Shown here one piece after another: positions 1 through 40,542 of a stretch of 42,362 nt of DNA. The translations under genes and the position numbers were made by a program. The notes beneath the pieces were generated by a model. It searched no databases, had not been told where the DNA came from, and saw only the letters and a program-made list of their open reading frames with translations. Each line of letters starts with the position of its first letter. The stretch's first letter is position 1. Origin of the DNA: a virus (Duplodnaviria > Caudoviricetes); IMG/VR virus record IMGVR_UViG_3300020398_000002, positions 1 through 42,362 of that record. One strand, written 5' to 3'.

Positions 1-77
1 GGAGTATTGCCTAAATCAATTCTAAGAGTATTTTGTTTCTCATCTGTAAAATAAGGTAAGTCCATAGGAGCTTCATA
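1..77. repeat. Terminal direct repeat (copy 1); circular assembly overlap
   Basis: GGAGTATTGCC...GGAGCTTCATA at 1-77 is identical to 42286-42362; 77 nt is a typical assembler k-mer. Confidence 0.95.
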
Positions 78-8870: not shown

Positions 8871-9809
8871 ATGAAATTAAGCAGACCTATAACTTTAAAA
8901 GAATATATAGGACAAGAAAAAACTAAGAAATCTATTAAGGTTTCTTTACAAGCATCAAAGAAAAGAAACGATGCCTTCCCTCACGTACTTTTGCATGGAG
9001 GAAGTGGACTTGGAAAAACAACATTAGCGTACACAATAGCTAATGAATTTGGTTCTAAGTGCAGAACATTTCTAGCACCTACTATTAAATCTCCAGAAGT
9101 ATTAGAGGTTGCATTACTTAAATGTACTAAGGGAGATATGATTTTTATAGATGAAGTTCATGCTCTTCCAAAGAAAACTCAGGAGTCACTTTATACAGCA
9201 ATGGAAGATGGAGTAATTCATTATGATAATGGAGTAGTTGATTCTATTCAGTTAGAACCATTTACATGTATTACTGCTACTACTGATCTAGGAAAACTCA
9301 CTGCACCTTTTAGAGAAAGATTTGGATTTATTTTTCCACTTAGTCCTTATTCCTATAATGAGATTGAATCAATTATAAAAATTAATATAAAGAAGTTAGA
9401 TTTAAAAATTACTAATAAAGCATTAGATATGTTAGGTAAATGCTCTAGGAAAAATCCTAGAACTGCAAACAGATTAATCGAAAGATGTTATGACACAGCA
9501 ACAATTAAAGATACTAGAAGTATTAGTAAAGAGATTGTTGATGAGACTATGGATAATCTTCAAATAGATCATAACGGTCTTACTACTTATGACTTATTAA
9601 TCTTAGAAGCATTATGTATAAAGTTTGAAGGAAATCCAGTAGGACTTAAAAATTTATCTCTAGTGGTAAACATAGATCAGTCTGCAATAGAAACTATTTA
9701 TGAGCCGTGGCTTTTGGAATTAAATTTAATAGATCGGACTCCTAGAGGGAGAATGATTACTAAAAAAGGATTGGTGTACTTTGCAGAAAACGATTCGCAA
9801 AACTCATAA
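8871..9809 (+). CDS. ruvB: RuvB-like Holliday junction branch-migration AAA+ ATPase
   Basis: RPxTLxEYIGQ, Walker A GGSGLGKTT, Walker B IFIDEVH, LYTAMED, ATT...LTAPFRERFG, EPWLL...RTPRGR winged-helix C-terminus. Confidence 0.93.
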   Translation: MKLSRPITLKEYIGQEKTKKSIKVSLQASKKRNDAFPHVLLHGGSGLGKTTLAYTIANEFGSKCRTFLAPTIKSPEVLEVALLKCTKGDMIFIDEVHALPKKTQESLYTAMEDGVIHYDNGVVDSIQLEPFTCITATTDLGKLTAPFRERFGFIFPLSPYSYNEIESIIKINIKKLDLKITNKALDMLGKCSRKNPRTANRLIERCYDTATIKDTRSISKEIVDETMDNLQIDHNGLTTYDLLILEALCIKFEGNPVGLKNLSLVVNIDQSAIETIYEPWLLELNLIDRTPRGRMITKKGLVYFAENDSQNS

Positions 9810-10221
9810 GATGATTGCTATGGAATATCAATATGGAAAACACATTGATGATCTTATTCTTGAAACTCTAGCTAATTCTGAAGGTGAACAAAAAGAAGCA
9901 AGTAGAAAATTAAATATGTCTGAAGCTACTCTATGTAGATGGATACATGAACTTGATTTAACAAGAAATGTTTCTAAGATCAGAAAGAACTTTGGACTTC
10001 CACCTACAACTAGAGAACTAAGAATGGAAACTAAATCAGGAGAGGAGTTAATTTCCATTGCAGTTATTTCTCCATGTACAGAATGTGGAAAAAGATTTGA
10101 GGAATTAAAAATTCATAATGTCACAGGAGTGAATACAGGTAATGATGAACTCATTGCGGTAGTTAGAGATGAGATGAATATTAAACATTGGTTTAAACTT
10201 GATCCCTCACGAGAAGAATAA
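9781..10221 (+). CDS. HTH DNA-binding protein with CxxC
   Basis: QKEASRKLNMSEATLCRWI HTH; CTEC. Confidence 0.7.
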   Translation: MQKTIRKTHKMIAMEYQYGKHIDDLILETLANSEGEQKEASRKLNMSEATLCRWIHELDLTRNVSKIRKNFGLPPTTRELRMETKSGEELISIAVISPCTECGKRFEELKIHNVTGVNTGNDELIAVVRDEMNIKHWFKLDPSREE

Positions 10222-10273
10222 CGCTTGTATCTTTATATATAAAACATAGGTGGCAGATATTTAAATTCTTCCA

Positions 10274-10306
10274 TCTTGTATACAACATACAAGAAAGCAT
10301 TATAAT
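10274..10306 (+). promoter_or_regulatory. Dyad operator overlapping a putative promoter
   Basis: TCTTGTAT-ACAAC-ATACAAGA inverted repeat; TTGTAT-19 nt-TATAAT. Confidence 0.45.
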
Positions 10307-10322
10307 AAAAATAGAGAGAGTA

Positions 10323-10643
10323 ATGTCAACTTTTCCAATAGAAGATGAGTCTATTTTGACTCTACAAACAATTCAAGAAGAATTATTTAAGTTAAATGAT
10401 AGTAAAGATCAGATAACTGCAAGGATAAAAGAATTAACTGGAGAAGTTGATTCAATATTATTAACTCATTTTTATAATCTTGCTCAAGCATCAGATCGAT
10501 TAGACCTATCTCCACAATCTGTATTACGTAGTATTCGTTCTAAAAGATATAAAGGAGTGAATATTGGTAATAAGTGGTATGTAAATCGTGCAGTAATTAA
10601 TGATGAAGTAGAAATAAAAAGAAGATTAGAAAGGGGTGTGTAA
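10323..10643 (+). CDS. Excisionase-like (HTH_17-type) DNA-binding protein
   Basis: YNLAQASDRLDLSPQSVLRSIRSKRYKGVNIGNKWYV pattern. Confidence 0.7.
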   Translation: MSTFPIEDESILTLQTIQEELFKLNDSKDQITARIKELTGEVDSILLTHFYNLAQASDRLDLSPQSVLRSIRSKRYKGVNIGNKWYVNRAVINDEVEIKRRLERGV

Positions 10644-10646
10644 TAA

Positions 10647-11258
10647 ATGTCAATTGAAGGAATAGACTGGAATGCAAACATAGAAGATTTAGAGCAAGAT
10701 ACTGTTGAAGAATGGGAATTTAATTTAAGACATTCCAACGACAAAGGAGAAAGTGATATTCTTCAAGGTCGTATTGATCCTCAACTTGGAAGAATAGTAG
10801 ATGAACTTATTCAAGAATCTAAAGGTCGTGGTATTCCAATTAAAACAAGAAGTGACTTTGTTCGTCTTTCAGTATTTAGGACTGCTACTGATTTGCAAAA
10901 ACATCTTAATAGCGATAACGAGCATGTATCTCATTATCTACTTCATGAAAAACAAATAATGAGTGAAGCACAAAAATCTGCAATGTTAGAAAGAGTTTTA
11001 ACTTCTGTACAAATGCTTACAAAAGGTTTAGCAGTTCTTTCATCTAGTGGAAGAGAAGATTGGAATGAGGTTAATAAAAGAATTACTAACTTCCTTAAAC
11101 CTGCATTAGAAATCTATGCAAGCCAACCATTTCTAGGGAAATTATATATTACAGAATTGTTTTCATATTCAAGATTTTCAGAAATCCTTGAATCATTAAA
11201 GGCAAATAAAAAGATTAGTAAAATAATTAAGGAGGCACAAAAGATATATGAATCCTAA
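10647..11258 (+). CDS. Putative ribbon-helix-helix DNA-binding protein
   Basis: QGRIDPQLGRIVDELI...KTRSDFVRLSV resembles RHH (CopG/NikR-type). Confidence 0.55.
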   Translation: MSIEGIDWNANIEDLEQDTVEEWEFNLRHSNDKGESDILQGRIDPQLGRIVDELIQESKGRGIPIKTRSDFVRLSVFRTATDLQKHLNSDNEHVSHYLLHEKQIMSEAQKSAMLERVLTSVQMLTKGLAVLSSSGREDWNEVNKRITNFLKPALEIYASQPFLGKLYITELFSYSRFSEILESLKANKKISKIIKEAQKIYES

Positions 11259-12852
11259 AACTTATGGGATGCCTTATGACTTTATGAGAGAGGGTCAGCT
11301 TGAGGCAATTAAGTGGATAGAGGAAAAGGATTGGTTACTTGATAGAACATCTAAGAAGATTAAAGTTATTGAAGCACCAACTGGAACAGGTAAAACAGGA
11401 TTAGTTTTATATTTATCTGCTAAAAATCCATCATTAAGAGTTCTCGTACTTTGTGCTACTAAGCTAGAACAAGAACAATATGAAGCAAATGTAACAAATA
11501 AATATGTAGGATTTACTTCTGTTAAGGGACGTAATAATTTTCATTGTCACCTTGACAGTCCAATATCTACAACAGAATGCACACATAGCACTTGCTTTGA
11601 AACTCATGTTGATACAGCTAAGTGTTCTATTCAAGGTAAGAATAAATTTATATGTCCAATAAGAAGTGAGTGTGCTTACTTCCAACAGATTGATGATATT
11701 AAACAAAAGAAAGTTATTGTAACTAATTATGCTTATGGGTTAACCATGCTTAATTATAATCCTCAAGCATTAGGAAGTTTTGATCTTATTGTTAGTGATG
11801 AAGGTCATGTGCTAGATGAAATGCTAGAGCAATTCATTCAAGTTAAATTATGGGATCGACAAATGGATCGACTCTATGGTTTGTCTATTCCAGATTTTGG
11901 AACAGTAGCACAATGGCAAAGGTGGTGTGAAGAAAATTCTTATGCAATAGATAAACTTTATGATTCAACTCATGATCTTAATGCAAGTGAAATGAGTAAA
12001 GAAGAAATAAGTCTAGCTACAAGAGCAGAGACTATAAAGGAATCTTTTGAAAGCATAAAGAGTATGGATGTTAATTGGGTTGTAGAACGACTCAGAGATT
12101 CAGTTGAATTTAAACCAGTATGGGTTACTGAACGTAGTGATGATGTTCTATTCTCACATTCACCTAAACATATTGTTATGAGTGGAACTATTCCATCTGG
12201 TGAAGAGTTAACTAAAAAGGTTGGGATTAACTCTAAGGATTTTTCTTTCTATAGATTGCCTTATACGTTTCCACCAGAGAATCGTCAGATTATATTAAGA
12301 CCAACAGCATCTATGTCATCTAAGAATATTGATATGAATCTTCCTGTTATTAGAGAAAAGATAGATAAGATTATTGATAATAACTTAGATAAGAAAATAT
12401 TAATCCATACAGTTAATTACAAGATTGCAAGATACATTGAGCAAAGAAGTAGACATTCAGATTACTTGTTTACTCATGATAGTAAAAGCAGGACTAGAGT
12501 TCTTAATAACTTTAAAAAAGCTACAGCCCCTGCTGTTCTGATCTCACCATCTTTTGATAAAGCAGTTGATCTGCCTGATAAAGAATGTGAATTAATTATT
12601 GTTGCTAAACTACCTTTCCCTTACTTGGGATCAAAGGTAATGCAAAAAAGACTAAGAGAATCTAGGAGGTATTACGACCATGAGACATTAGCTACCTTAA
12701 TACAGATGGCAGGTAGAGGTGTAAGAAATGAGAATGATATTTGTCCCACCATCATTCTTGATTCTTCTGCACCATCATTTATTCAAAGGTGTGGGACAAC
12801 TGGATTAATTCCAGACGGCATCAAAGTAGCAATTCGTAGAGAAGGAGTTTAA
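11248..12852 (+). CDS. DinG/XPD-family SF2 helicase with probable Fe-S cluster
   Basis: Q-motif REGQ, EAPTGTGKT, KGRNNFHC plus Cys cluster, VTNYAY, DEGH, MSGT, KLPFP, QMAGRGVR. Confidence 0.88.
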   Translation: MNPKTYGMPYDFMREGQLEAIKWIEEKDWLLDRTSKKIKVIEAPTGTGKTGLVLYLSAKNPSLRVLVLCATKLEQEQYEANVTNKYVGFTSVKGRNNFHCHLDSPISTTECTHSTCFETHVDTAKCSIQGKNKFICPIRSECAYFQQIDDIKQKKVIVTNYAYGLTMLNYNPQALGSFDLIVSDEGHVLDEMLEQFIQVKLWDRQMDRLYGLSIPDFGTVAQWQRWCEENSYAIDKLYDSTHDLNASEMSKEEISLATRAETIKESFESIKSMDVNWVVERLRDSVEFKPVWVTERSDDVLFSHSPKHIVMSGTIPSGEELTKKVGINSKDFSFYRLPYTFPPENRQIILRPTASMSSKNIDMNLPVIREKIDKIIDNNLDKKILIHTVNYKIARYIEQRSRHSDYLFTHDSKSRTRVLNNFKKATAPAVLISPSFDKAVDLPDKECELIIVAKLPFPYLGSKVMQKRLRESRRYYDHETLATLIQMAGRGVRNENDICPTIILDSSAPSFIQRCGTTGLIPDGIKVAIRREGV

Positions 12853-13614
12853 ATGGCTACAGAACAAAATTTAAATTGGGGAAACCCAATAGAAGAGTTT
12901 CCTAGTGGTGAGTTCTTTGAGGGGGATTTCGATGGGACAATTACGTCCATAGTTTACGAAACCAATTATTCTAGGTTTCAAATTACGGTATCAGTTAACC
13001 CTGCGGAATATGAATACGAAACTAGGGGAATGGTATTTGATCCTGATACTCCAGTAGAAATACGTGGATATTATTCGATGGGTGGAACTTACGATGAAGA
13101 TGATCCCACTCTAAGCACTTGGCAAATATCTAATGATGGAAAGAGTGTAACAGGTGGTGGACTTCCTAGAAGAAATACAAGAGCAGTTAAATTAATTATG
13201 GCATTACGTGAACATAGTGGTGTTGAAATGGAAGGCTCTGATTTAGGTTCTTTAGAGGGTGCAACAGTCCATTGGAAAGAAATTAAAGAGGTTGTTTTTA
13301 ATCCCTCTACTCAAGAGAATGCAGATAGATTTTTTCGCTATCCTGTTTCTCCTGCATTAGGGGCGAGTGGAGATTCCTCTGCTATCACCAATCAAGCAGA
13401 TTTAGATGAGGCTTATAGCCTTATACAATCTATTCTTGTTAAGAATGGTGACGAGATGATGAGGACAAGAGAACTTCCAACTAAGGCTATAGAGTTTGCT
13501 GATGAATACTCTAGTGAAATTGTTAAGTTGGCTTGTGAGACTACAACTATTGAGTCTGCAATTAGATCAGGAAAGATAGTTAGAGTTGATGAGAGAAACA
13601 TAGCATTAGCCTAA
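12853..13614 (+). CDS. Acidic hypothetical protein, possibly SSB-like
   Basis: 253 aa; beta-rich N-terminus; lies between helicase and exonuclease (position-based inference). Confidence 0.55.
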   Translation: MATEQNLNWGNPIEEFPSGEFFEGDFDGTITSIVYETNYSRFQITVSVNPAEYEYETRGMVFDPDTPVEIRGYYSMGGTYDEDDPTLSTWQISNDGKSVTGGGLPRRNTRAVKLIMALREHSGVEMEGSDLGSLEGATVHWKEIKEVVFNPSTQENADRFFRYPVSPALGASGDSSAITNQADLDEAYSLIQSILVKNGDEMMRTRELPTKAIEFADEYSSEIVKLACETTTIESAIRSGKIVRVDERNIALA

Positions 13615-13616
13615 GA

Positions 13617-13730
13617 ATAATTGGGGAAATCTTTAAAGATTACGTGATTGCAAAAAAATAGAAATGTATCTCCCGATAGCAATTAAATGATTAAGCGACA
13701 ATAAGGTGAAAGTCCTGATCCCCAAGTTAT
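13617..13730 (+). ncRNA. Candidate structured intergenic RNA
   Basis: Closing stem ATAATTGGGGA/TCCCCAAGTTAT enclosing AATCTTTAAAGATT, GATTGC/GCAATT and AGG-TGAAAGT-CCT hairpins. Confidence 0.45.
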
Positions 13731-13740
13731 GGAGAGAGAG

Positions 13741-14376
13741 ATGAAAACAAATAGAGTAGAGGAACAAGAAAGAGACTGGAATAATACTTTAACTTCTTCT
13801 TATGAAAGTAATGATAGAACTGGAGTACATGTTTCAGACTTAACACTTTGTTTACGACAAACTGCGTTATCTAGACAACATTCTCCTGTTTGGGATGAGT
13901 CTACTCTTTATCGTTTTACGATGGGACGAGCAATGGAGAAGAATTTTTTTTCCTTGTTCGCTCCCACCATGACTCAAGAATTAGAAGTTATTAAAGATGG
14001 AATAGAAGGACATATAGACTTTGCTAGTGATCCTGTTGACTTTGAATGTAAATTAACGTGGAGTAGAGAACCAGAATCTTCAGATGCTTTATTTGAATCT
14101 AAGTTCTGGTGGTTGGAACAAGCCGGTGCTTACACACATATGCGTGGAAGAACCAAGATGAATTTTGTAATTTGTTTCCTTAATCCTGTTCCTAAAATAA
14201 GATGCTATCAAGTTGAATGGGAACAAAGTGAACTCGATGAACTCTGGAAAAGGTTCCTAGAGAACAAGGAGTATTTAGAGTTTAAAGAAATACAAGGACT
14301 ACTACCTAATAAAACTCCTTTGACATGGCTATGTAGAGGATGTGCATATAAGGAAGTTTGTGATGACTCTGGCTAG
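13741..14376 (+). CDS. Cas4-like PD-(D/E)XK exonuclease
   Basis: VSDLTLC, GHID, ECK, QAGAY and C-terminal CRGC...C (split four-Cys Fe-S motif); start after GGAGAGAGAG. Confidence 0.82.
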   Translation: MKTNRVEEQERDWNNTLTSSYESNDRTGVHVSDLTLCLRQTALSRQHSPVWDESTLYRFTMGRAMEKNFFSLFAPTMTQELEVIKDGIEGHIDFASDPVDFECKLTWSREPESSDALFESKFWWLEQAGAYTHMRGRTKMNFVICFLNPVPKIRCYQVEWEQSELDELWKRFLENKEYLEFKEIQGLLPNKTPLTWLCRGCAYKEVCDDSG

Positions 14377-14581
14377 ATTCCAATATGGATATTGCAGTAT
14401 GAGAACTTGTAAAAGACCAATAGGTTATGATCCCAAGTTAGCTGTATCAGTTAAGGGTAATCCTGTATGTCCTAAGTGTGTTGAGAATATTTTAAATAGA
14501 GGTAGGAAAAGTCTAGGCAAAATGCCATTTCCAATTCTACCTAATGCGTATACAAAAGAAAGTTTTGAGAGAAAGGAATAG
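14363..14581 (+). CDS. Small Zn-finger protein
   Basis: CSMRTC...VCPKC; ATG 14363 behind AAGGA. Confidence 0.65.
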   Translation: MTLARFQYGYCSMRTCKRPIGYDPKLAVSVKGNPVCPKCVENILNRGRKSLGKMPFPILPNAYTKESFERKE

Positions 14582-14583
14582 AT

Positions 14584-15345
14584 GTGAATAATTTTGAGAG
14601 TTTGGAAAGTTATTTAAATAATAGACGTAGATTTGTAATGAGTGTTTGGGCAGGAACAGGAATAGGTAAAAGTTACTTTGCACTTACAGCACCTAAACCA
14701 ATTTACTTTCTTAGCATGGAACCTGAAGGGCCATATTGGAGTTTACAAACTGCTTTAGATAATAAGATTATAAGTTCAGAAGATGTACATATTGATGAGA
14801 TTATCAGGAGTGCATTAGGTACAAAGGATGTTCCTCTTGTAAGAACTCTTGTTGATGAAGCAAAGATTTATAGATATATGAAAGACACTATTGAGAATGT
14901 TATTTCTCAAGGTAATGACAATGGAACTCTTGTTATAGATACAGGTACTACTTGGAATCATTTAGTGCAAGAAGTAGAGATGGAAGAGATTAGTAGAAAG
15001 AGAAGTCAACAGGGTAGAGATTTATTTCCCTTTGATTATAGATATGCTAATAAAGCAATGAAGAGTTCTATAGATGCAATTAGAAACTCTAATCTTAACT
15101 GTGTGATTACTCATCACTCCAGTAGTGTTTATAACTCTCAAGGTGCTAAGACTAATCGTATTGAATACTCAGGTAATAACCAATTACCTCAATGGGTAGA
15201 TTTACAAATTCAACTTAAATATTCTCCTGAGAGTAAAGAGAGATATGCAGTTGTAGATAAATGCAGAGTTGATATTGAGAAGATTGGAGAAGAGATAGAC
15301 AATCCATCTTTTGATTCTGTTATTAAGGCAGTAGGTGGTGCGTAA
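14584..15345 (+). CDS. P-loop ATPase, Sak4/AAA_24-like recombination protein
   Basis: Walker A AGTGIGKS, Walker B LVIDT, VITHH; next to the Cas4-like nuclease. Confidence 0.72.
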   Translation: MNNFESLESYLNNRRRFVMSVWAGTGIGKSYFALTAPKPIYFLSMEPEGPYWSLQTALDNKIISSEDVHIDEIIRSALGTKDVPLVRTLVDEAKIYRYMKDTIENVISQGNDNGTLVIDTGTTWNHLVQEVEMEEISRKRSQQGRDLFPFDYRYANKAMKSSIDAIRNSNLNCVITHHSSSVYNSQGAKTNRIEYSGNNQLPQWVDLQIQLKYSPESKERYAVVDKCRVDIEKIGEEIDNPSFDSVIKAVGGA

Positions 15346-15881
15346 TGTTTAATCTATATGTTCCATATAAAATATCTGAATTAACAGAAAATCGTATTGA
15401 GGAAATACATAAGCTACTTGAAAATAATCCTCATATGACTCTTAAAGAAATTGGAGATACATTAGGTGTTACTAGGGAAAGAGTTAGACAAATTATTCTA
15501 GTTAATAATTATAAGTTTGAACATCCAAATAGTTTATATAGAAACCATAGAAATATTAAAAGGATTATACGTTTAGGTAAACTACCTAAGATAAGAGAAT
15601 GCTCTGGATGTACTACTGCAATATCTACACAGAATAAAGGTGGAATGTGTCGTCCCTGTAGAAAAGAATCAAATCTAATTAAACTTATTTGTACTTATTG
15701 TGGAAACAAAGCAACCCTATCTTCACAAGCAAGTGCTATGAGAAGATCGCATATTAAGCGTAATAAAATTAAGAATCCAGACCTTGAGTTTTGTTCACTA
15801 GATTGTTCAAGTAAGTATGTTGGTAGACGTTTCGGAATAGGAAGCAATAGAAGAATATCAAAGGATTGGAATAAACTGTAA
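15345..15881 (+). CDS. Sigma70 region-4-like HTH protein with Zn fingers
   Basis: TLKEIGDTLGVTRERVRQI; CSGC, CRPC, CTYC, FCSLDC. Confidence 0.75.
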   Translation: MFNLYVPYKISELTENRIEEIHKLLENNPHMTLKEIGDTLGVTRERVRQIILVNNYKFEHPNSLYRNHRNIKRIIRLGKLPKIRECSGCTTAISTQNKGGMCRPCRKESNLIKLICTYCGNKATLSSQASAMRRSHIKRNKIKNPDLEFCSLDCSSKYVGRRFGIGSNRRISKDWNKL

Positions 15882-16585
15882 TGATAATCATTGATTCAAA
15901 TCAAGAGTCAATGACTCCAGAACTTAAACAATATATTGAAAAGGAAATTCCTGTTCTTGTTTCTCCACTCGACACAGGAGACATGATGTTTGTTGGAAAG
16001 ATGAATGGAGAATCTGTAAGGATTGGAATGGAGATAAAGAAAACTCCTTCTGATCTTATGGGTAGTTTAAGAGATGGAAGATTAATGACTCAACTCCCAC
16101 GATTAACAGAAGAGTTTGATATGCCTTATCTGTTGTTTGTTGGAGAGAACATTAAAGTAGATTTTAATGAAGGAAAGATACGAGAGAGATTCCATCAATC
16201 TTGGAAAACATCTTCATTCTCCTATCACTATCTTAACTCGATATTAACTCGATTTGAGGCTAGTGGTGGAAGGATTAGAACATTTGAGAATATGGAACAT
16301 CTTGCAGTATTTGTTTTTTCTACATTTAGATGGTGGACTAAAGAGGTTCATACAGAAGAAGTATTTTATAGGAAGAGACATAAGTTTTTAGATTGGAAGT
16401 TAATGAGTGATCCACTTATAGAAATATATGAACGCATGGGTATAGGAGTAAAACGTGCGACTGTGTTAGCAGAGAAGTATCCAACAATGATGGACTTAGT
16501 TCTAGCTGACGAGGAAGAACTAAATTCATTAAGTAATTTTGGTAAGAAAACAGTAAGTAAAATGATGAAATTCATTAAAGGATAA
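15881..16585 (+). CDS. ERCC4/XPF-family structure-specific nuclease with HhH
   Basis: IIIDSNQE, LDTGD, EIKKxxxDLMGSLRDGRL (ERKxxxD-like), two HhH motifs GIGVKRA and NFGKKT. Confidence 0.85.
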   Translation: MIIIDSNQESMTPELKQYIEKEIPVLVSPLDTGDMMFVGKMNGESVRIGMEIKKTPSDLMGSLRDGRLMTQLPRLTEEFDMPYLLFVGENIKVDFNEGKIRERFHQSWKTSSFSYHYLNSILTRFEASGGRIRTFENMEHLAVFVFSTFRWWTKEVHTEEVFYRKRHKFLDWKLMSDPLIEIYERMGIGVKRATVLAEKYPTMMDLVLADEEELNSLSNFGKKTVSKMMKFIKG

Positions 16586-16593
16586 AGAGAGAG

Positions 16594-17295
16594 ATGGTTA
16601 TAAAAGATAAAGAAAAGATTCAAGTGTGGAAAGAATATAAGGTTGGACTCCAGATTAATGGAGAGTTTGGTGGACAAATACCTAGAAGTAAAACAGAAAT
16701 AATAAACATGATTCAAGCTAATGCTCCTAAAACTAAACCAGAAGGAGCAATCCAAAGTTTAGATGAGTTAAGTCAGGAAGTGATTTCTCAGATAGATATT
16801 CAAGATGAAGAATCAGATGATTACATTCCGGGATGGTCTACATTTAAACGTAATGCAAAGAATGAAATTATGTATGAAGGAAGGTGCGTTAGAGGACACT
16901 TAAAGGATTGTGCATTACAAGTTGCAGATTTCTTTCCTGCTATTAAACAGTTCAGAGCAAAGGTTGTTAATGCTCTCTATGTTAAGGAGAGTATGTTTAA
17001 TGTCTATGACTCTTCACGTAATCCTATTGTAGAAGTGGGTGGAGTTGAGCAAAGGTTTATTCATGTTATGACAGCTAGGGGAGAACGTAATGCTATTAAG
17101 TTTTTAGATTATGTTCTTGATCCTTATATTGAATTTACTCTTATGTTAAAGAATGTAAATGCAAGACCACTACATACAATTACTTTAGAGCATATTGAAA
17201 CAATGTTGGCTTATGGTTCTACTCATGGTTTAGGTGCAGAACGCTCTCAAGGATGGGGTAGATATTCTGTTACAGGAATCACAGAAATAAATTAA
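16594..17295 (+). CDS. Stand-alone Cas7/RAMP-superfamily RNA-binding protein
   Basis: N-terminal beta strand plus Gly (YKVGLQINGEFGGQIP); YEGRCVRGHLKD like the RAMP (P)GSSxKGxxR helix; C-terminal G-rich loop YGSTHGLGAERSQGWGRYSV. Confidence 0.82.
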   Translation: MVIKDKEKIQVWKEYKVGLQINGEFGGQIPRSKTEIINMIQANAPKTKPEGAIQSLDELSQEVISQIDIQDEESDDYIPGWSTFKRNAKNEIMYEGRCVRGHLKDCALQVADFFPAIKQFRAKVVNALYVKESMFNVYDSSRNPIVEVGGVEQRFIHVMTARGERNAIKFLDYVLDPYIEFTLMLKNVNARPLHTITLEHIETMLAYGSTHGLGAERSQGWGRYSVTGITEIN

Positions 17296-17820
17296 ACCTG
17301 AGATTCGGTGTGAAGTTTACTGGTGTGAAATGAAGACAAGACACTATGTGAATCAAAATGAAATGTAGACAAGATGTTATTTTGAATGGAATGGGATGTA
17401 GACAAGATGTGATGTCTTTTATCTTGGCTTGGAGTGAAGTCGAGGGATATGTTGGAATGATATGTAAAAGATTACGAGAGATAAGATTAAGTCGATTGGC
17501 ATGGCCTGTAGTCAAGAACAGAGTTCTTGTGATGTGATTTGCTATGAAGACAAGACTTGCACTTGATGTGAAGTTTAATGGATACAAGAAGTTGAGTGTA
17601 TCGTTTTGTAATCAAGAAATGAGATGAGATGGAATGGAAAGTAGACAAGCAGTGAAGTTAATCGGGGTGGAGTGAAGACGAGTACCAAAGTGGCTTCATT
17701 TGTTTTGAAGACAAGGAGTCGAATGACTTGAAAGGGAATGTAGCGTAGACGAGTGGTGGAATGTGAATTCTATGTAATGAAGACAAGCAATGAAACGTAA
17801 TGGATTGAAATGTGATGATC
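17296..17820 (+). repeat. Non-coding pentamer-phased repeat array; putative guide-RNA array of the RAMP gene
   Basis: 14 anchors (consensus TGWAG-WCRAG) starting at 17331, 17364, 17397, 17435, 17469, 17507, 17545, 17579, 17607, 17640, 17673, 17706, 17744, 17778; internal (T/C)GNNN 5-nt periodicity. Confidence 0.85.
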
Positions 17821-17840
17821 AAAAAATTAAGGGGGAATAT

Positions 17841-18116
17841 GTGGCACAGTTAACTAAAGCAACAGGAGAGCAAGACTTTATCTATCCTAAGAATGGAAAG
17901 ACTTTTATATTAGATGAAATTCAAGGGTATGTTGGAGGAAACTTCCAACATGTTCCTTTAATGAATCCATTCTCAGAGTTCGATGTAATGCTTTGTGATG
18001 AAGATGGAATAGCAAATAAAAAACCAATTAATATGTATGCAACCATACTTGCACATCAACCAATCTTGGGAGATGTAATGACTTGTAGGTTACTAGAAGG
18101 AGAGTATGTTGAGTAG
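17841..18116 (+). CDS. DUF3846-like protein
   Basis: LDEIQGYVGG...CDEDG...PINMYAT...ILGDV; GTG 17841 behind AAGGGGGA (the track start at 17790 lies inside the array). Confidence 0.7.
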   Translation: MAQLTKATGEQDFIYPKNGKTFILDEIQGYVGGNFQHVPLMNPFSEFDVMLCDEDGIANKKPINMYATILAHQPILGDVMTCRLLEGEYVE

Positions 18117-37189: not shown

Positions 37190-38749
37190 CTATATACTAT
37201 TTATTAAATTACGGTCTAGATATGAATAATATGTAAATCCATTTATATCTTCAGACTCAGATGTTATTTTAAATAATTCACTCAAATCTGCATCTATATC
37301 ATATAGACCACGTTTTTCTTTTGGCTCATCTAATCCTGCATCTATTCCACTTAAACCAAGATGTCTAGCAAATACTCTTCTAGCTTCTTCTGTATCCATA
37401 AATCCATTTGATACAGCATCTTTCAATGCTGTGCCAATACTTCTGATTGCAATTGCATTAGCTCTTTGATCTCTGAACGAAACCTCTGGCATACGTAGGT
37501 AAAATGAAGCAGACTCTATAGAAGCAAGAGTAGAATCATTCCTTCTCATATCTTGTCTTAATCTTCCATGAACAATTGCTTGATCTAGGACAAACCTAAA
37601 TATTCTAGACATAATATGAGCAATATACTTTTGTCTCATTTTAAGATGTCTATAAGCAGGTTCGGTCATTTCAGGAGCGGATGCCCTTGATGTTAAAGAT
37701 TCAGCAAACCAGATAGGTGGTAAACCTGCACCTGCAAGAACGTGGTTCTTTAATACGCTAGCAAGACTTGCACTATCCTCTAGCTTTAAGTCTGGAGTCT
37801 GGAAATTCATGCTCACGTTTTCATTGTGTGCAAATCTTTCTCCGGGCTTTAAAGCCTTTTGATTTCTTAACCATTCTTTAATCTGCTGTTCGTTTTTACC
37901 TTGAAGTGTGACATCTAGAACATACTTAGAACTTTCTATAGCTTTCTCTACAGAACTAAACAAAAACTGATCATGTGCATCTATCCAGTCCATATCTGGT
38001 AGAAGGTCTGACCAACCTCTATTAGCAGTCATAGGATTATTAATAGTGAAGAATAAACATGAGCCTGCAATTTGGACTTTGTATTTACGTCCTTCTACAG
38101 GCTCAATTAAATCACCTTTAGAAAAATCTCCGCCTTCTATAGTTCCACAGTTTAATCCAACCAATCTTCCATATTCTTTATGTCCAACAGGCATAGAAGA
38201 AACATCAATAATTTTATATGCTCTACGATAATCTTCTTTAGGCATCTTTCTAAGAATAACTAACTGTTGCTTCATGTTATTCTCAGGATTCTCAACAATA
38301 GTTTCTATAAGTGAAGTATCTATATTTCCAAGAGTGACATGACCATTGTTCTCATTAACATAAACTGGAACGCAAAGCTCTCCAGTTAATCCTAAGTCTC
38401 GAACTCTAGAAAACTGATTGATTGTCCAGTTATTCGTTGGGTCAGTCCAATGAGCATCTAATACTTCTTTTACATTACGATCTTCAGCAACGTATTTAAT
38501 CCCATCGCCAATTACGTATTCTGCTGTGAGATCAATAATACGTTTTGCGATAGGGTTACTCTTATAGAAGTAATGTGCATAGTCAGTAGATTGCTGTTGA
38601 GTTAATGATGGAAGGTTGCGTTCTTTACCAGAACTTCCAAGAGGTTTCCACAAATATGAGTCAGGGTCAGAGTCATTAGAATAAGATATTGCTTCTTCTT
38701 TGACTCCACCAGTTAATACTTGCCATGATTCTCTAACACGTTCAAACAT
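37190..38749 (-). CDS. Portal protein
   Basis: YKSNPIAKRIID...VIGDG, GEL, RGWSDL, AGAGLPPIW; between TerL and capsid. Confidence 0.85.
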   Translation of the reverse strand: MFERVRESWQVLTGGVKEEAISYSNDSDPDSYLWKPLGSSGKERNLPSLTQQQSTDYAHYFYKSNPIAKRIIDLTAEYVIGDGIKYVAEDRNVKEVLDAHWTDPTNNWTINQFSRVRDLGLTGELCVPVYVNENNGHVTLGNIDTSLIETIVENPENNMKQQLVILRKMPKEDYRRAYKIIDVSSMPVGHKEYGRLVGLNCGTIEGGDFSKGDLIEPVEGRKYKVQIAGSCLFFTINNPMTANRGWSDLLPDMDWIDAHDQFLFSSVEKAIESSKYVLDVTLQGKNEQQIKEWLRNQKALKPGERFAHNENVSMNFQTPDLKLEDSASLASVLKNHVLAGAGLPPIWFAESLTSRASAPEMTEPAYRHLKMRQKYIAHIMSRIFRFVLDQAIVHGRLRQDMRRNDSTLASIESASFYLRMPEVSFRDQRANAIAIRSIGTALKDAVSNGFMDTEEARRVFARHLGLSGIDAGLDEPKEKRGLYDIDADLSELFKITSESEDINGFTYYSYLDRNLINSI

Positions 38750-39633
38750 TATATTCTCAGCCCCCTATGGAAAAGACTGCTTCTTCCAGAAAGAGATAAC
38801 ACTCGATCTCTTGATGATTCCTCTTCATGATACAGTTCTTCTGGAGTTTCATCCAGTAATAAATCCAAACTACTTACAGAAGCGGCCTCAACACTTGAAG
38901 TTAGGTTATGAGTAGCAATCCATAACGCATCCAATATATCATCTCGTCCACCTCTAGGGAATGAAGAATATTCCTGTTGGAATTCCCTAAACCCTAGCTC
39001 TGAAGACATATTCATACTATCGCCTCTTCTTTCACCTTTAAATACAATACTTCCATTAGCTATAAAAGGAATAATCGCATCGTAGCGTTGTGCCTTAGAA
39101 CCTTTAGGTGTAACTGTTTCAATAGGCATAGAACCTCTAGGATCATTTCTAGTATTTTCAATTAAGTGTTGGGTTGTAGCTTGCTGTGGCCCATTTGTTT
39201 CTAGGATTACTCTTGATATATTTAATCCTCTGCTACGCCACTTTTGATATTGAGCATGTAAAAACTCAAGATGTTTAGGTGCAGAGATGTTAGCAAATGC
39301 AAAATCAAGAATATAAATTATTCCAGTATTTGGGTCTTTACCTGCTGTGCAATGTCCAAAGTAATCTGCATTACGTCTTTCACTTGTTGCAGGATCACCA
39401 CCTTGAACACCAGTTAAAGTATGAATAGGAGGGATAGTTACGTCATCATAAAAGTGTAACCAATCAACATCAAACTTTACTCCTTTCATTCCACTAGGAT
39501 CATTTTGATATTGAGCATTAAATAATGCAGGTGGCATTGATTTACGTTTTTTCTCTAGCCATTCAAGAGGACGTTGATCCTCCCATAAAACTGAACCATC
39601 TGGTTGAATAGCTTGGTACAATCTAACGCCCAT
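38749..39633 (-). CDS. terL: Terminase large subunit, C-terminal nuclease part
   Basis: LW...FNAQYQNDP, GGDPA, ETNGPQ, SKAQR, FPRGGRDDILDA (RNase H-like). Confidence 0.85.
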   Translation of the reverse strand: MGVRLYQAIQPDGSVLWEDQRPLEWLEKKRKSMPPALFNAQYQNDPSGMKGVKFDVDWLHFYDDVTIPPIHTLTGVQGGDPATSERRNADYFGHCTAGKDPNTGIIYILDFAFANISAPKHLEFLHAQYQKWRSRGLNISRVILETNGPQQATTQHLIENTRNDPRGSMPIETVTPKGSKAQRYDAIIPFIANGSIVFKGERRGDSMNMSSELGFREFQQEYSSFPRGGRDDILDALWIATHNLTSSVEAASVSSLDLLLDETPEELYHEEESSRDRVLSLSGRSSLFHRGLRI

Positions 39634-39754
39634 TGTCTATCTCATAAGGAATAGCATCTTCTTCTGCTTTCCAATACATATACGATCTAATCTTATGAAC
39701 TGCTATAACTGTTGTAGATATAGCAATAATAGAGAGTAGTGTTTTCCACTTCAT
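39623..39754 (-). CDS. 43-aa single-TM peptide between the two terL halves
   Basis: MKWKTLLSIIAISTTVIAVHKIRSYMYWKAEEDAIPYEIDNGR; ATGA overlap with the terL-N stop; overlaps the terL-C start. Confidence 0.5.
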   Translation of the reverse strand: MKWKTLLSIIAISTTVIAVHKIRSYMYWKAEEDAIPYEIDNGR

Positions 39755-40542
39755 GCTGTAGCCTCTATAATTTCTGGATATAAATCTGTATATAGTTTTT
39801 CGGTATCAAATATAGGAATTAATTCTGCATATAAATCATCATAATGAAATCTAGTTCCAAGAAATACTTGTTGTCCTGTAGGTAAGAGCATCGGATCAAA
39901 CGACATCCAGAATTTTGCAGAGACATTATGTCTGCTTGTTTCACTCTGGCTATTCTCAAAAGAAACCACATCATCATATACCTGTAATGTAGATCGACCA
40001 CCTTCAACGCTTGTTGTTATTCCAAATGCCGCAAATGTAGCATCACGCTGTATATTTCCAGATTCCCAAGCTGCTGTTTGATCACGCATCACTTCAAAGC
40101 GATCTGTTTTCCATGTGTAATCATTATTGTTCTCTGGATATAAATTTCCAAACATATCAATGTATCTTTGGTTAAACCTAATACAGCTTTCAATTTTTCC
40201 CATTCGTTCTATAGCTAGACTGATAACTGATGATATGACTTGAACCATCTCTAGGGGATTACGACCAACTTTCCATAAAGGAAAAGATTCAGCGGCTAAA
40301 GCAGTTTTACCATGATTTCTAGGGGCTAGTATGAGTAATGGATTTACATCACTATTATCAGGATTCTCATGACCTTCTTTTAATGTCTCCATTATTTCCC
40401 ATTGGAATTTAGGTAGCTTTTGATTAAAGATATATTCATGAAAATAAGCAGGATGATCATATGCACGTTCTTCAGCAAGGCTTCTTTCTTTCATTCCAGA
40501 TAAAAGAGATATACTTTCCATATCAGCAATTTTTCTAGGCAT
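39751..40542 (-). CDS. terL: Terminase large subunit, N-terminal ATPase part
   Basis: APRNHGKT Walker A, GGRSTLQVYDD Walker B, LGTRFHYDDLY coupling motif. Confidence 0.85.
   Translation of the reverse strand: MPRKIADMESISLLSGMKERSLAEERAYDHPAYFHEYIFNQKLPKFQWEIMETLKEGHENPDNSDVNPLLILAPRNHGKTALAAESFPLWKVGRNPLEMVQVISSVISLAIERMGKIESCIRFNQRYIDMFGNLYPENNNDYTWKTDRFEVMRDQTAAWESGNIQRDATFAAFGITTSVEGGRSTLQVYDDVVSFENSQSETSRHNVSAKFWMSFDPMLLPTGQQVFLGTRFHYDDLYAELIPIFDTEKLYTDLYPEIIEATA

Follow-up and report, generated by a model that had tools for sequence, protein, structure and literature searches.

A Vipr-like RAMP gene and its adjoining array of TG-NNN pentamers in a phage genome record: identity and candidate reading register

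What does a phage do with some 15 short repeat units (a terminal stretch included), phased in steps of five nucleotides and lying beside a gene of predicted RAMP fold? The window, by which we mean the whole stretch of 42,362 nt analysed here (IMG/VR record IMGVR_UViG_3300020398_000002), is a phage record of 42 kb that carries the genes for capsid, portal and terminase as well as RuvB, Sak4-like and ERCC4 genes. Our best explanation, to which we give an even chance, is a VIPR-type silencer whose guides are read at bases 3–4 after the UG, with one target base skipped per block. VIPR, in the passages of the preprints covered here, consists of a lone RAMP protein and guides built of GGY/NN pentamers, one protomer binding each repeat (10.64898/2026.04.26.720920; 10.64898/2026.04.26.720927; 10.64898/2026.10.15.759431); it reads the NN pair with a one-base skip and represses transcription (10.64898/2026.04.26.720920). 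Our search for literature on VIPR returned four preprints and nothing beyond them. From the letters of the window, the first-pass annotation had arrived at a gapped code in which one protomer binds every 5 nt. VIPR has been shown to work in this manner and the neighbouring gene is predicted to encode a RAMP, so the idea goes in the right direction; since the locus is VIPR-type, however, it is already in print.

The layout of the array (Table 1) is largely as first described. Fourteen WCRAG anchors between 17336 and 17783 recur at 33, 33, 38, 34, 38, 38, 34, 28, 33, 33, 33, 38 and 34 nt, exactly the spacings given before, and the proposed period of five stands out from 2000 base shuffles (autocorrelation 0.469 at lag 5, z=9.3). 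Longer lags of 28, 33 and 38 also exceed base shuffles (z=4.0, 6.6 and 5.3, respectively), and the array is the strongest lag-5 stretch of the window (excess 0.18 versus a mean of −0.01, sd 0.03). Our recount of the 80 pentamers returned the numbers of the earlier hand count (T as the first base in 68, a pyrimidine in 76, TG as the first two bases in 52), figures that lean upward because three of the 14 units carry one extra base and the base dropped from each of these 34-nt units was placed to maximise YG. The parse of each unit into NNN, four to six pentamers and WCRAG was reproduced as well, except that the last pentamer is not variable: it belongs to a 10-nt handle, TGWAG-WCRAG, in which base 2 is G in 14/14 and base 4 is A in 13/14 of the window's units.

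Table 1. Coordinates of the gene and of the array parts in the window
Feature	Position	Strand	Description
Vipr-like RAMP gene	16594..17295	+	ORF, 233 aa, directly upstream of the array
Array	17303..17787	+	14 units of 28–38 nt each: NNN, 3–5 variable TG-NNN pentamers, 10-nt handle; starts 7 nt past the end of the RAMP ORF
Unit ends	17340, 17373, 17406, 17444, 17478, 17516, 17554, 17588, 17616, 17649, 17682, 17715, 17753, 17787		
Gene-proximal unit	17303..17340	+	differs in other assemblies at 17305, 17306, 17325, 17328, 17329
Terminal stretch	17788..17820	+	six pentamers, no handle; copy in L003 identical

The units are likely guide RNAs, and the terminal stretch is either a last guide or the end of the array. 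Between assemblies, variation within 17100–18000 is confined to the gene-proximal unit, where three of four sequencing runs differ and the fourth has no coverage. Tandem Repeats Finder did not list the array, Rfam had no match in the window, the array RNA folded no better than shuffles (z=−0.19) and promoter motifs near the locus were not in excess (5 found, 8.9 expected). A minus-strand ORF (17279–17587) and the 5′ part of the ORF at 17790–18116 overlap the array, and we took both for by-products. The latter ORF encodes a DUF3846 protein, its called ATG sits inside the array, and a GTG that follows a G-rich stretch, near 17841, would be the likelier start.

Does the neighbouring gene fit such an array? 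Its product has no Pfam or PHROG match and a sequence search of the PDB returned nothing; its AlphaFold2 model (mean pLDDT 93.9) nevertheless predicts a RAMP/Cas7 fold. The best fold matches of the model are Csm3/Cas7 (Z 13.5, rmsd 4.5 over 165 residues; Foldseek E 1.5e-7), and the top matches are CRISPR RAMPs without exception; Vipr entries were absent from the matches in a library reaching up to April 2026. The model features an RRM core, a predicted thumb hairpin at about residues 150–175 and a C-terminal glycine-rich loop, the last being invariant in the family alignment. Direct likeness to Vipr of phage SUSP1 is weak, at 10.6 bits against the family profile, with glycine loop aligned onto glycine loop, and 7% probability in hhalign, and a wider family profile picks up a canonical YNNGG locus (L231, E 7e-5). 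That locus belongs to a genome (G143) with three copies of it (L231, L235, L237), and loci of YNNNG type in another genome (L229 and L236, G508) are followed, as judged by eye, by an HNH-like ORF. The family counts 1491 representatives at E up to 0.001, and the Atlas clusters nearest to it are 96–100% viral. Two matches in the genome collection, both Dehalococcoidia bins (40–42% identity), and a match in one of 401 Dehalococcoidia genomes give no more than a hint of the host; the sequencing runs containing the array stretch are marine.

Upstream of the RAMP gene lies a replication and recombination block (8871–16585, plus strand) with a RuvB-like ATPase, a DinG-like helicase, a Cas4-like nuclease, a Sak4-like ATPase and an ERCC4 nuclease, the gene of the last adjoining that of the RAMP protein. 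Among the window's ORFs in the 13.5–20.5 kb interval, only the RAMP ORF is widely shared (84 loci, the next best 7), the Cas4-like gene at 13729 being common to near-identical phages only. Across the clade we found neither a shared neighbour gene nor an accessory vap gene, many of the loci in both comparisons being short contigs, and a scan of 44 ORFs gave no match to cas1, cas2, cas5, cas6 or cas10. Elsewhere in the window, the terminase large subunit shows up as a pair of adjacent minus-strand ORFs (38749–39633 and 39751–40542) matching successive parts of the phrog_38 profile, and a T-rich tract (2246–2310) occupies the gap following the ORF at 1544–2185.

How general is the arrangement? 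We called arrays in 77 of 88 related loci, each on the strand of the gene and either upstream or downstream of it. This set leaves out L012 (identical to the window) and L001–L002 (repeated by L003–L004); some contigs occur in it twice, and three of the 11 array-less loci end inside the gene. Clade-wide, the unit plan is NNN+(TG-NNN)n followed by the 10-nt handle; part of the handle logo is set by the pattern used for the search. Unit length is 5n+3 in 573 of 645 unique units, most commonly 33, 38 or 28 nt, and in 2510 inner pentamers base 1 is T in 92% and base 2 is G in 97%, while bases 3–5 carry at most 0.06 bit. The scaffold is looser in the window's own lineage (TG in 30/60 inner pentamers, insertions uncorrected). 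Turnover is rapid: L003, whose protein is 98% identical to that of the window, has about 7 of 15 units in common with it and the rest replaced, so the variable positions do differ between related phages, a point that the first-pass annotation had put up for checking. Distant relatives of 23–30% identity adjoin arrays that keep the 5n+3 plan on other scaffolds, GG-NNN in L226 and G-N-NNN in L227 and L094. L094 (2474–3640) is from the cultured Microcystis phage Mae-JY09 (PP395641.1), where the relative, 23% identical, is annotated as hypothetical and the 5n+3, G-N-NNN array lies on the opposite strand; this phage is an easy test system. Some loci carry extra arrays of 13–31 units, 3–6 kb from the RAMP gene (L070, 1558–2575 and 4298–4741; L071; L073; L086, 5127–6045), and in L068 an array of 32 units lies about 900 nt downstream of that gene. 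Two complete phages with capsids 63–65% identical (G004, G005) have neither a RAMP gene nor a solo array, nor did the 30 loci of capsid relatives contain solo arrays.

Could the array be something other than a store of guides? It might be a repeat made by slippage, a protein-binding sponge or a DNA element that happens to lie beside an unrelated RAMP gene. Runs of one repeated pentamer occur inside several guides (L090, L048, L054), and one guide of L021 looks like a fusion of the 5′ part of an L020 guide with part of one from L018; such runs and chimaeras suggest slippage and recombination, the dinucleotide use is purine-rich rather than codon-like, and our searches found no targets. Set against this are the strict 5n+3 phasing, the fixed handle, the same-strand linkage in 77/88 loci, the unequal constraint on bases 3–5 and the matching arrays on other scaffolds beside relatives of 23–30% identity, so that we regard a non-guide array as very improbable. 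Recombination and slippage at the TG scaffold may be how new guides are made.

Which bases would a guide present to its target? Between homologous guides, changes affected base 3 in 3, base 4 in 15 and base 5 in 28 of 174 pentamers (3 v 28, p=5e-6; 3 v 15, p=0.008; 15 v 28, p=0.07), as counted along 41 spanning-tree edges among 45 near-identical guide pairs that are kin to one another and were picked by overall likeness. Similarly, bases 3–4 are in common over five blocks in 33 guide pairs, 20 of which differ at base 5, and bases 4–5 in 14 pairs, two of which differ at base 3; shuffled guides yield 0–2 such sharing pairs. Base 3 is the most stable of the variable guide bases and base 5 the least. 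With only 3/174 changes, base 3 does not behave as scaffold, contrary to GGY/NN or TGH/NN, and it likely pairs, because a base that only sat in a protein pocket should either conform to a consensus or drift, and base 3 does neither. In SUSP1-type arrays, by eye, the base after the read pair (G1) is the most often degenerate of the scaffold bases; as a control, SUSP1-type guides offer only three homologous pairs (three changes at N5, one at N4), too few to use.

The register suggested by the published motif differs from this. There, TG-N would be the scaffold (G1 turned to U, Y3 relaxed) and bases 4–5 would be read with a one-base skip, as in TGH/NN, a repeat listed among the non-canonical VIPR types (10.64898/2026.10.21.760802). 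It is the simplest mapping onto GGY/NN, NNNGG and NNNNG repeats are on record in the VIPR paper (10.64898/2026.04.26.720920), and an acidic residue at the W178 position accompanies the fixed G at base 2. If base 3 were not read, however, it would be expected to drift, and yet it is the most stable (3/174 versus 28/174 for base 5). In the passages covered, moreover, the repeat-motif method behind TGH/NN imposed three fixed and two free bases and involved no pairing test. TGH excludes G at base 3, which conflicts with the 29% G found at that base, so that the motif of the window's clade is TGN rather than TGH. The viral scan by this rule was also empty and the local loci showed no excess. We think it unlikely that bases 4–5 are the read pair.

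Alternatively, all three variable bases might pair and only the UG be bulged out, giving an unbroken target of 15–21 nt that tolerates mismatches at base 5. Here the window and L003 are informative: in five unit pairs without indels, picked by eye, base 2 changed in 7 of 25 pentamers and bases 3, 4 and 5 in one each (base 5 versus base 2, p=0.05), and bases 3–5 (3/75) and lead bases (0/15) were stable relative to bases 1–2 (10/50; p=0.006) and to the four-fold sites of the RAMP gene (11/82 changed). The stability of base 5 fits its being read, although 1/25 is not clearly below 11/82. As for the protein, SUSP1 W178 stacks on G2, and in four loci the residue aligned to it varies with base 2, being acidic (E or D) if that base is a fixed G and L if it is free, a pattern by which base 2 would occupy the G2 pocket and base 3 would take the place of Y3; the old Y3 pocket residues differ too, SUSP1 E71 and C173 aligning to the invariant R97 and H211 of the family. 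The M72-aligned residue of the Y3 pocket, however, also differs between these same loci (C v Q, by eye), so the protein comparison does not decide between the registers. Against pairing by all three bases, base 5 drifts in 16% of homologous pentamers, the joined triplets do not clearly avoid stop codons (0.79–1.06 of expectation), and unbroken targets were not found in excess (see below). On balance we consider this reading rather unlikely, and from the pattern of changes the array would read either bases 3–4 or all three of bases 3–5.

Targets could decide between these registers. The first-pass annotation had looked to gapped matches above chance, and these were absent from the related loci, the viral collection and the Dehalococcoidia genomes. 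Under 11 pairing rules no excess appeared, either for 120 guides, the first among 213 that had at least six triplets, or in a larger search with 236 of about 590 guides (those that had at least six triplets or that came from the window or L003, extra-base units left out). Under the 3–4 rule, these 236 guides had no match at E<0.01 in 0.76 Mb of related DNA, namely a deduplicated set of 92 loci that contained the window as well as relatives lacking VIPR, versus two for shuffles; the best single match in related loci (E 0.004) was also equalled by shuffles, and no guide matched the DNA of G004 or G005 as candidate competitors. By the same rule, one long guide had 95 matches of nine site types in the viral collection, 88 of them at one conserved site in one phage group; the lead bases also fit in one of the nine types, as chance allows. 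A match in L160 lies in a low-complexity stretch and was taken as chance. Among conserved window guides, two were searched as unbroken 18-mers in the viral collection, with no match for one and 5 scattered matches for the other, one searched with a one-base skip had none there, and one had a single match with one mismatch in the 401 Dehalococcoidia genomes, about as expected by chance. All of these searches require near-exact matches and have little power, because each guide offers only 8–14 read bases, and the real targets may be missing from the collections sampled.

Given the gene with its predicted fold, the array, its clade-wide spread and the exchange of units between close phages, all of which we observe, how might the system work? 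Under the preferred reading, each RAMP protomer would grip one five-base block and present bases 3–4 for pairing; one target base would be skipped per block, and base 5, beside the skipped base, would be read weakly or not at all. By analogy with VIPR, the array would be transcribed together with the RAMP gene, and cutting or priming at the 10-nt handle would give guides of about 30–40 nt with some 8–14 read bases. A filament would then assemble on the guide, bind double-stranded DNA and repress competing mobile elements, so that silencing of rival DNA is the likely role.

The VIPR code has to date been tested only in the GGY/NN type II; in the passages of the preprints covered here, read bases outside GGY-type guides were not tested, save for searches that applied this rule unchanged to guides of types III and V. 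Should the clade have moved its reading frame inside the pentamer, or read three bases, the code would be evolvable and published motif calls such as TGH/NN would mispredict targets. A one-protein system with guides of 30–40 nt would, if true, be among the smallest programmable DNA binders, and arrays composed of numerous short guides and a fixed handle bear on the origin of CRISPR arrays and on how new guides are made. With about 590 guides parsed, the reading rule is directly testable.

Where, then, does the locus stand among known systems? It very probably works like VIPR. As in VIPR type II of SUSP1, a stand-alone phage RAMP of about 200–230 aa, lacking a cas operon, adjoins a non-coding array of 5-nt period that is hypervariable between close phages. 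Still, the locus is not VIPR type II. That type has GGY/NN repeats, whereas the clade has a fixed TG and three variable bases (base 1 T in 92%, base 3 free); type II guides comprise 9–16 repeats and end in a structured 3′ tail of about 40 nt, as opposed to 4–6 blocks per unit in the window (4–11 in the clade) and a 10-nt handle with no structured tail; and type II has an accessory vap gene and the glycine loop DWR in SUSP1, where the clade has no shared accessory gene, the loop xER and up to 32 units per array.

The locus probably belongs to the broad VIPR family, as TG-NNN fits the NNNNG consensus, and it is possibly one of the VIPR types already figured in print. In the passages covered, NNNGG, YNNNG and NNNNG repeats are named along with staggered arrays overlapping by one base (10.64898/2026.04.26.720920). 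The 5n+3 spacing would follow if guides were 5n+4 nt long, because such guides would overlap by one base; we compared the staggered vrRNA arrays (Figs S17 and S18 of that preprint) by legends and methods, and the text covered reports no target rule for them. TGH/NN is likewise a TG-led pentamer beside a Vipr-like fold, and the motif assumes that bases 4–5 are read; the passages covered mention neither a handle nor a unit length and report no register test (10.64898/2026.10.21.760802).

Class 1 CRISPR Cas7/Csm3 shares with the locus the RAMP fold and a guide array split by a fixed handle. It has a cas operon and a direct-repeat/spacer array, both of which the window lacks, the array showing no 25–40-nt repeat and having its 5-nt period inside the variable part. 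Were all three bases read, the clade could be pictured as a living intermediate between the two-of-five gapped code of VIPR and the five-of-six code of CRISPR, combining CRISPR-like arrays of short guides with a single 233-aa protein, a placement that we offer only tentatively. The TIGR-Tas protein is a Nop-domain protein. TIGR-Tas arrays have an 18-nt period, in the passages covered (10.64898/2026.10.21.760802), unlike the period of 5 and the RAMP fold seen here. Relative to published VIPR, what is new in this clade is the short guides, the handle without a structured tail, the lack of a shared accessory gene and the evidence on the register.
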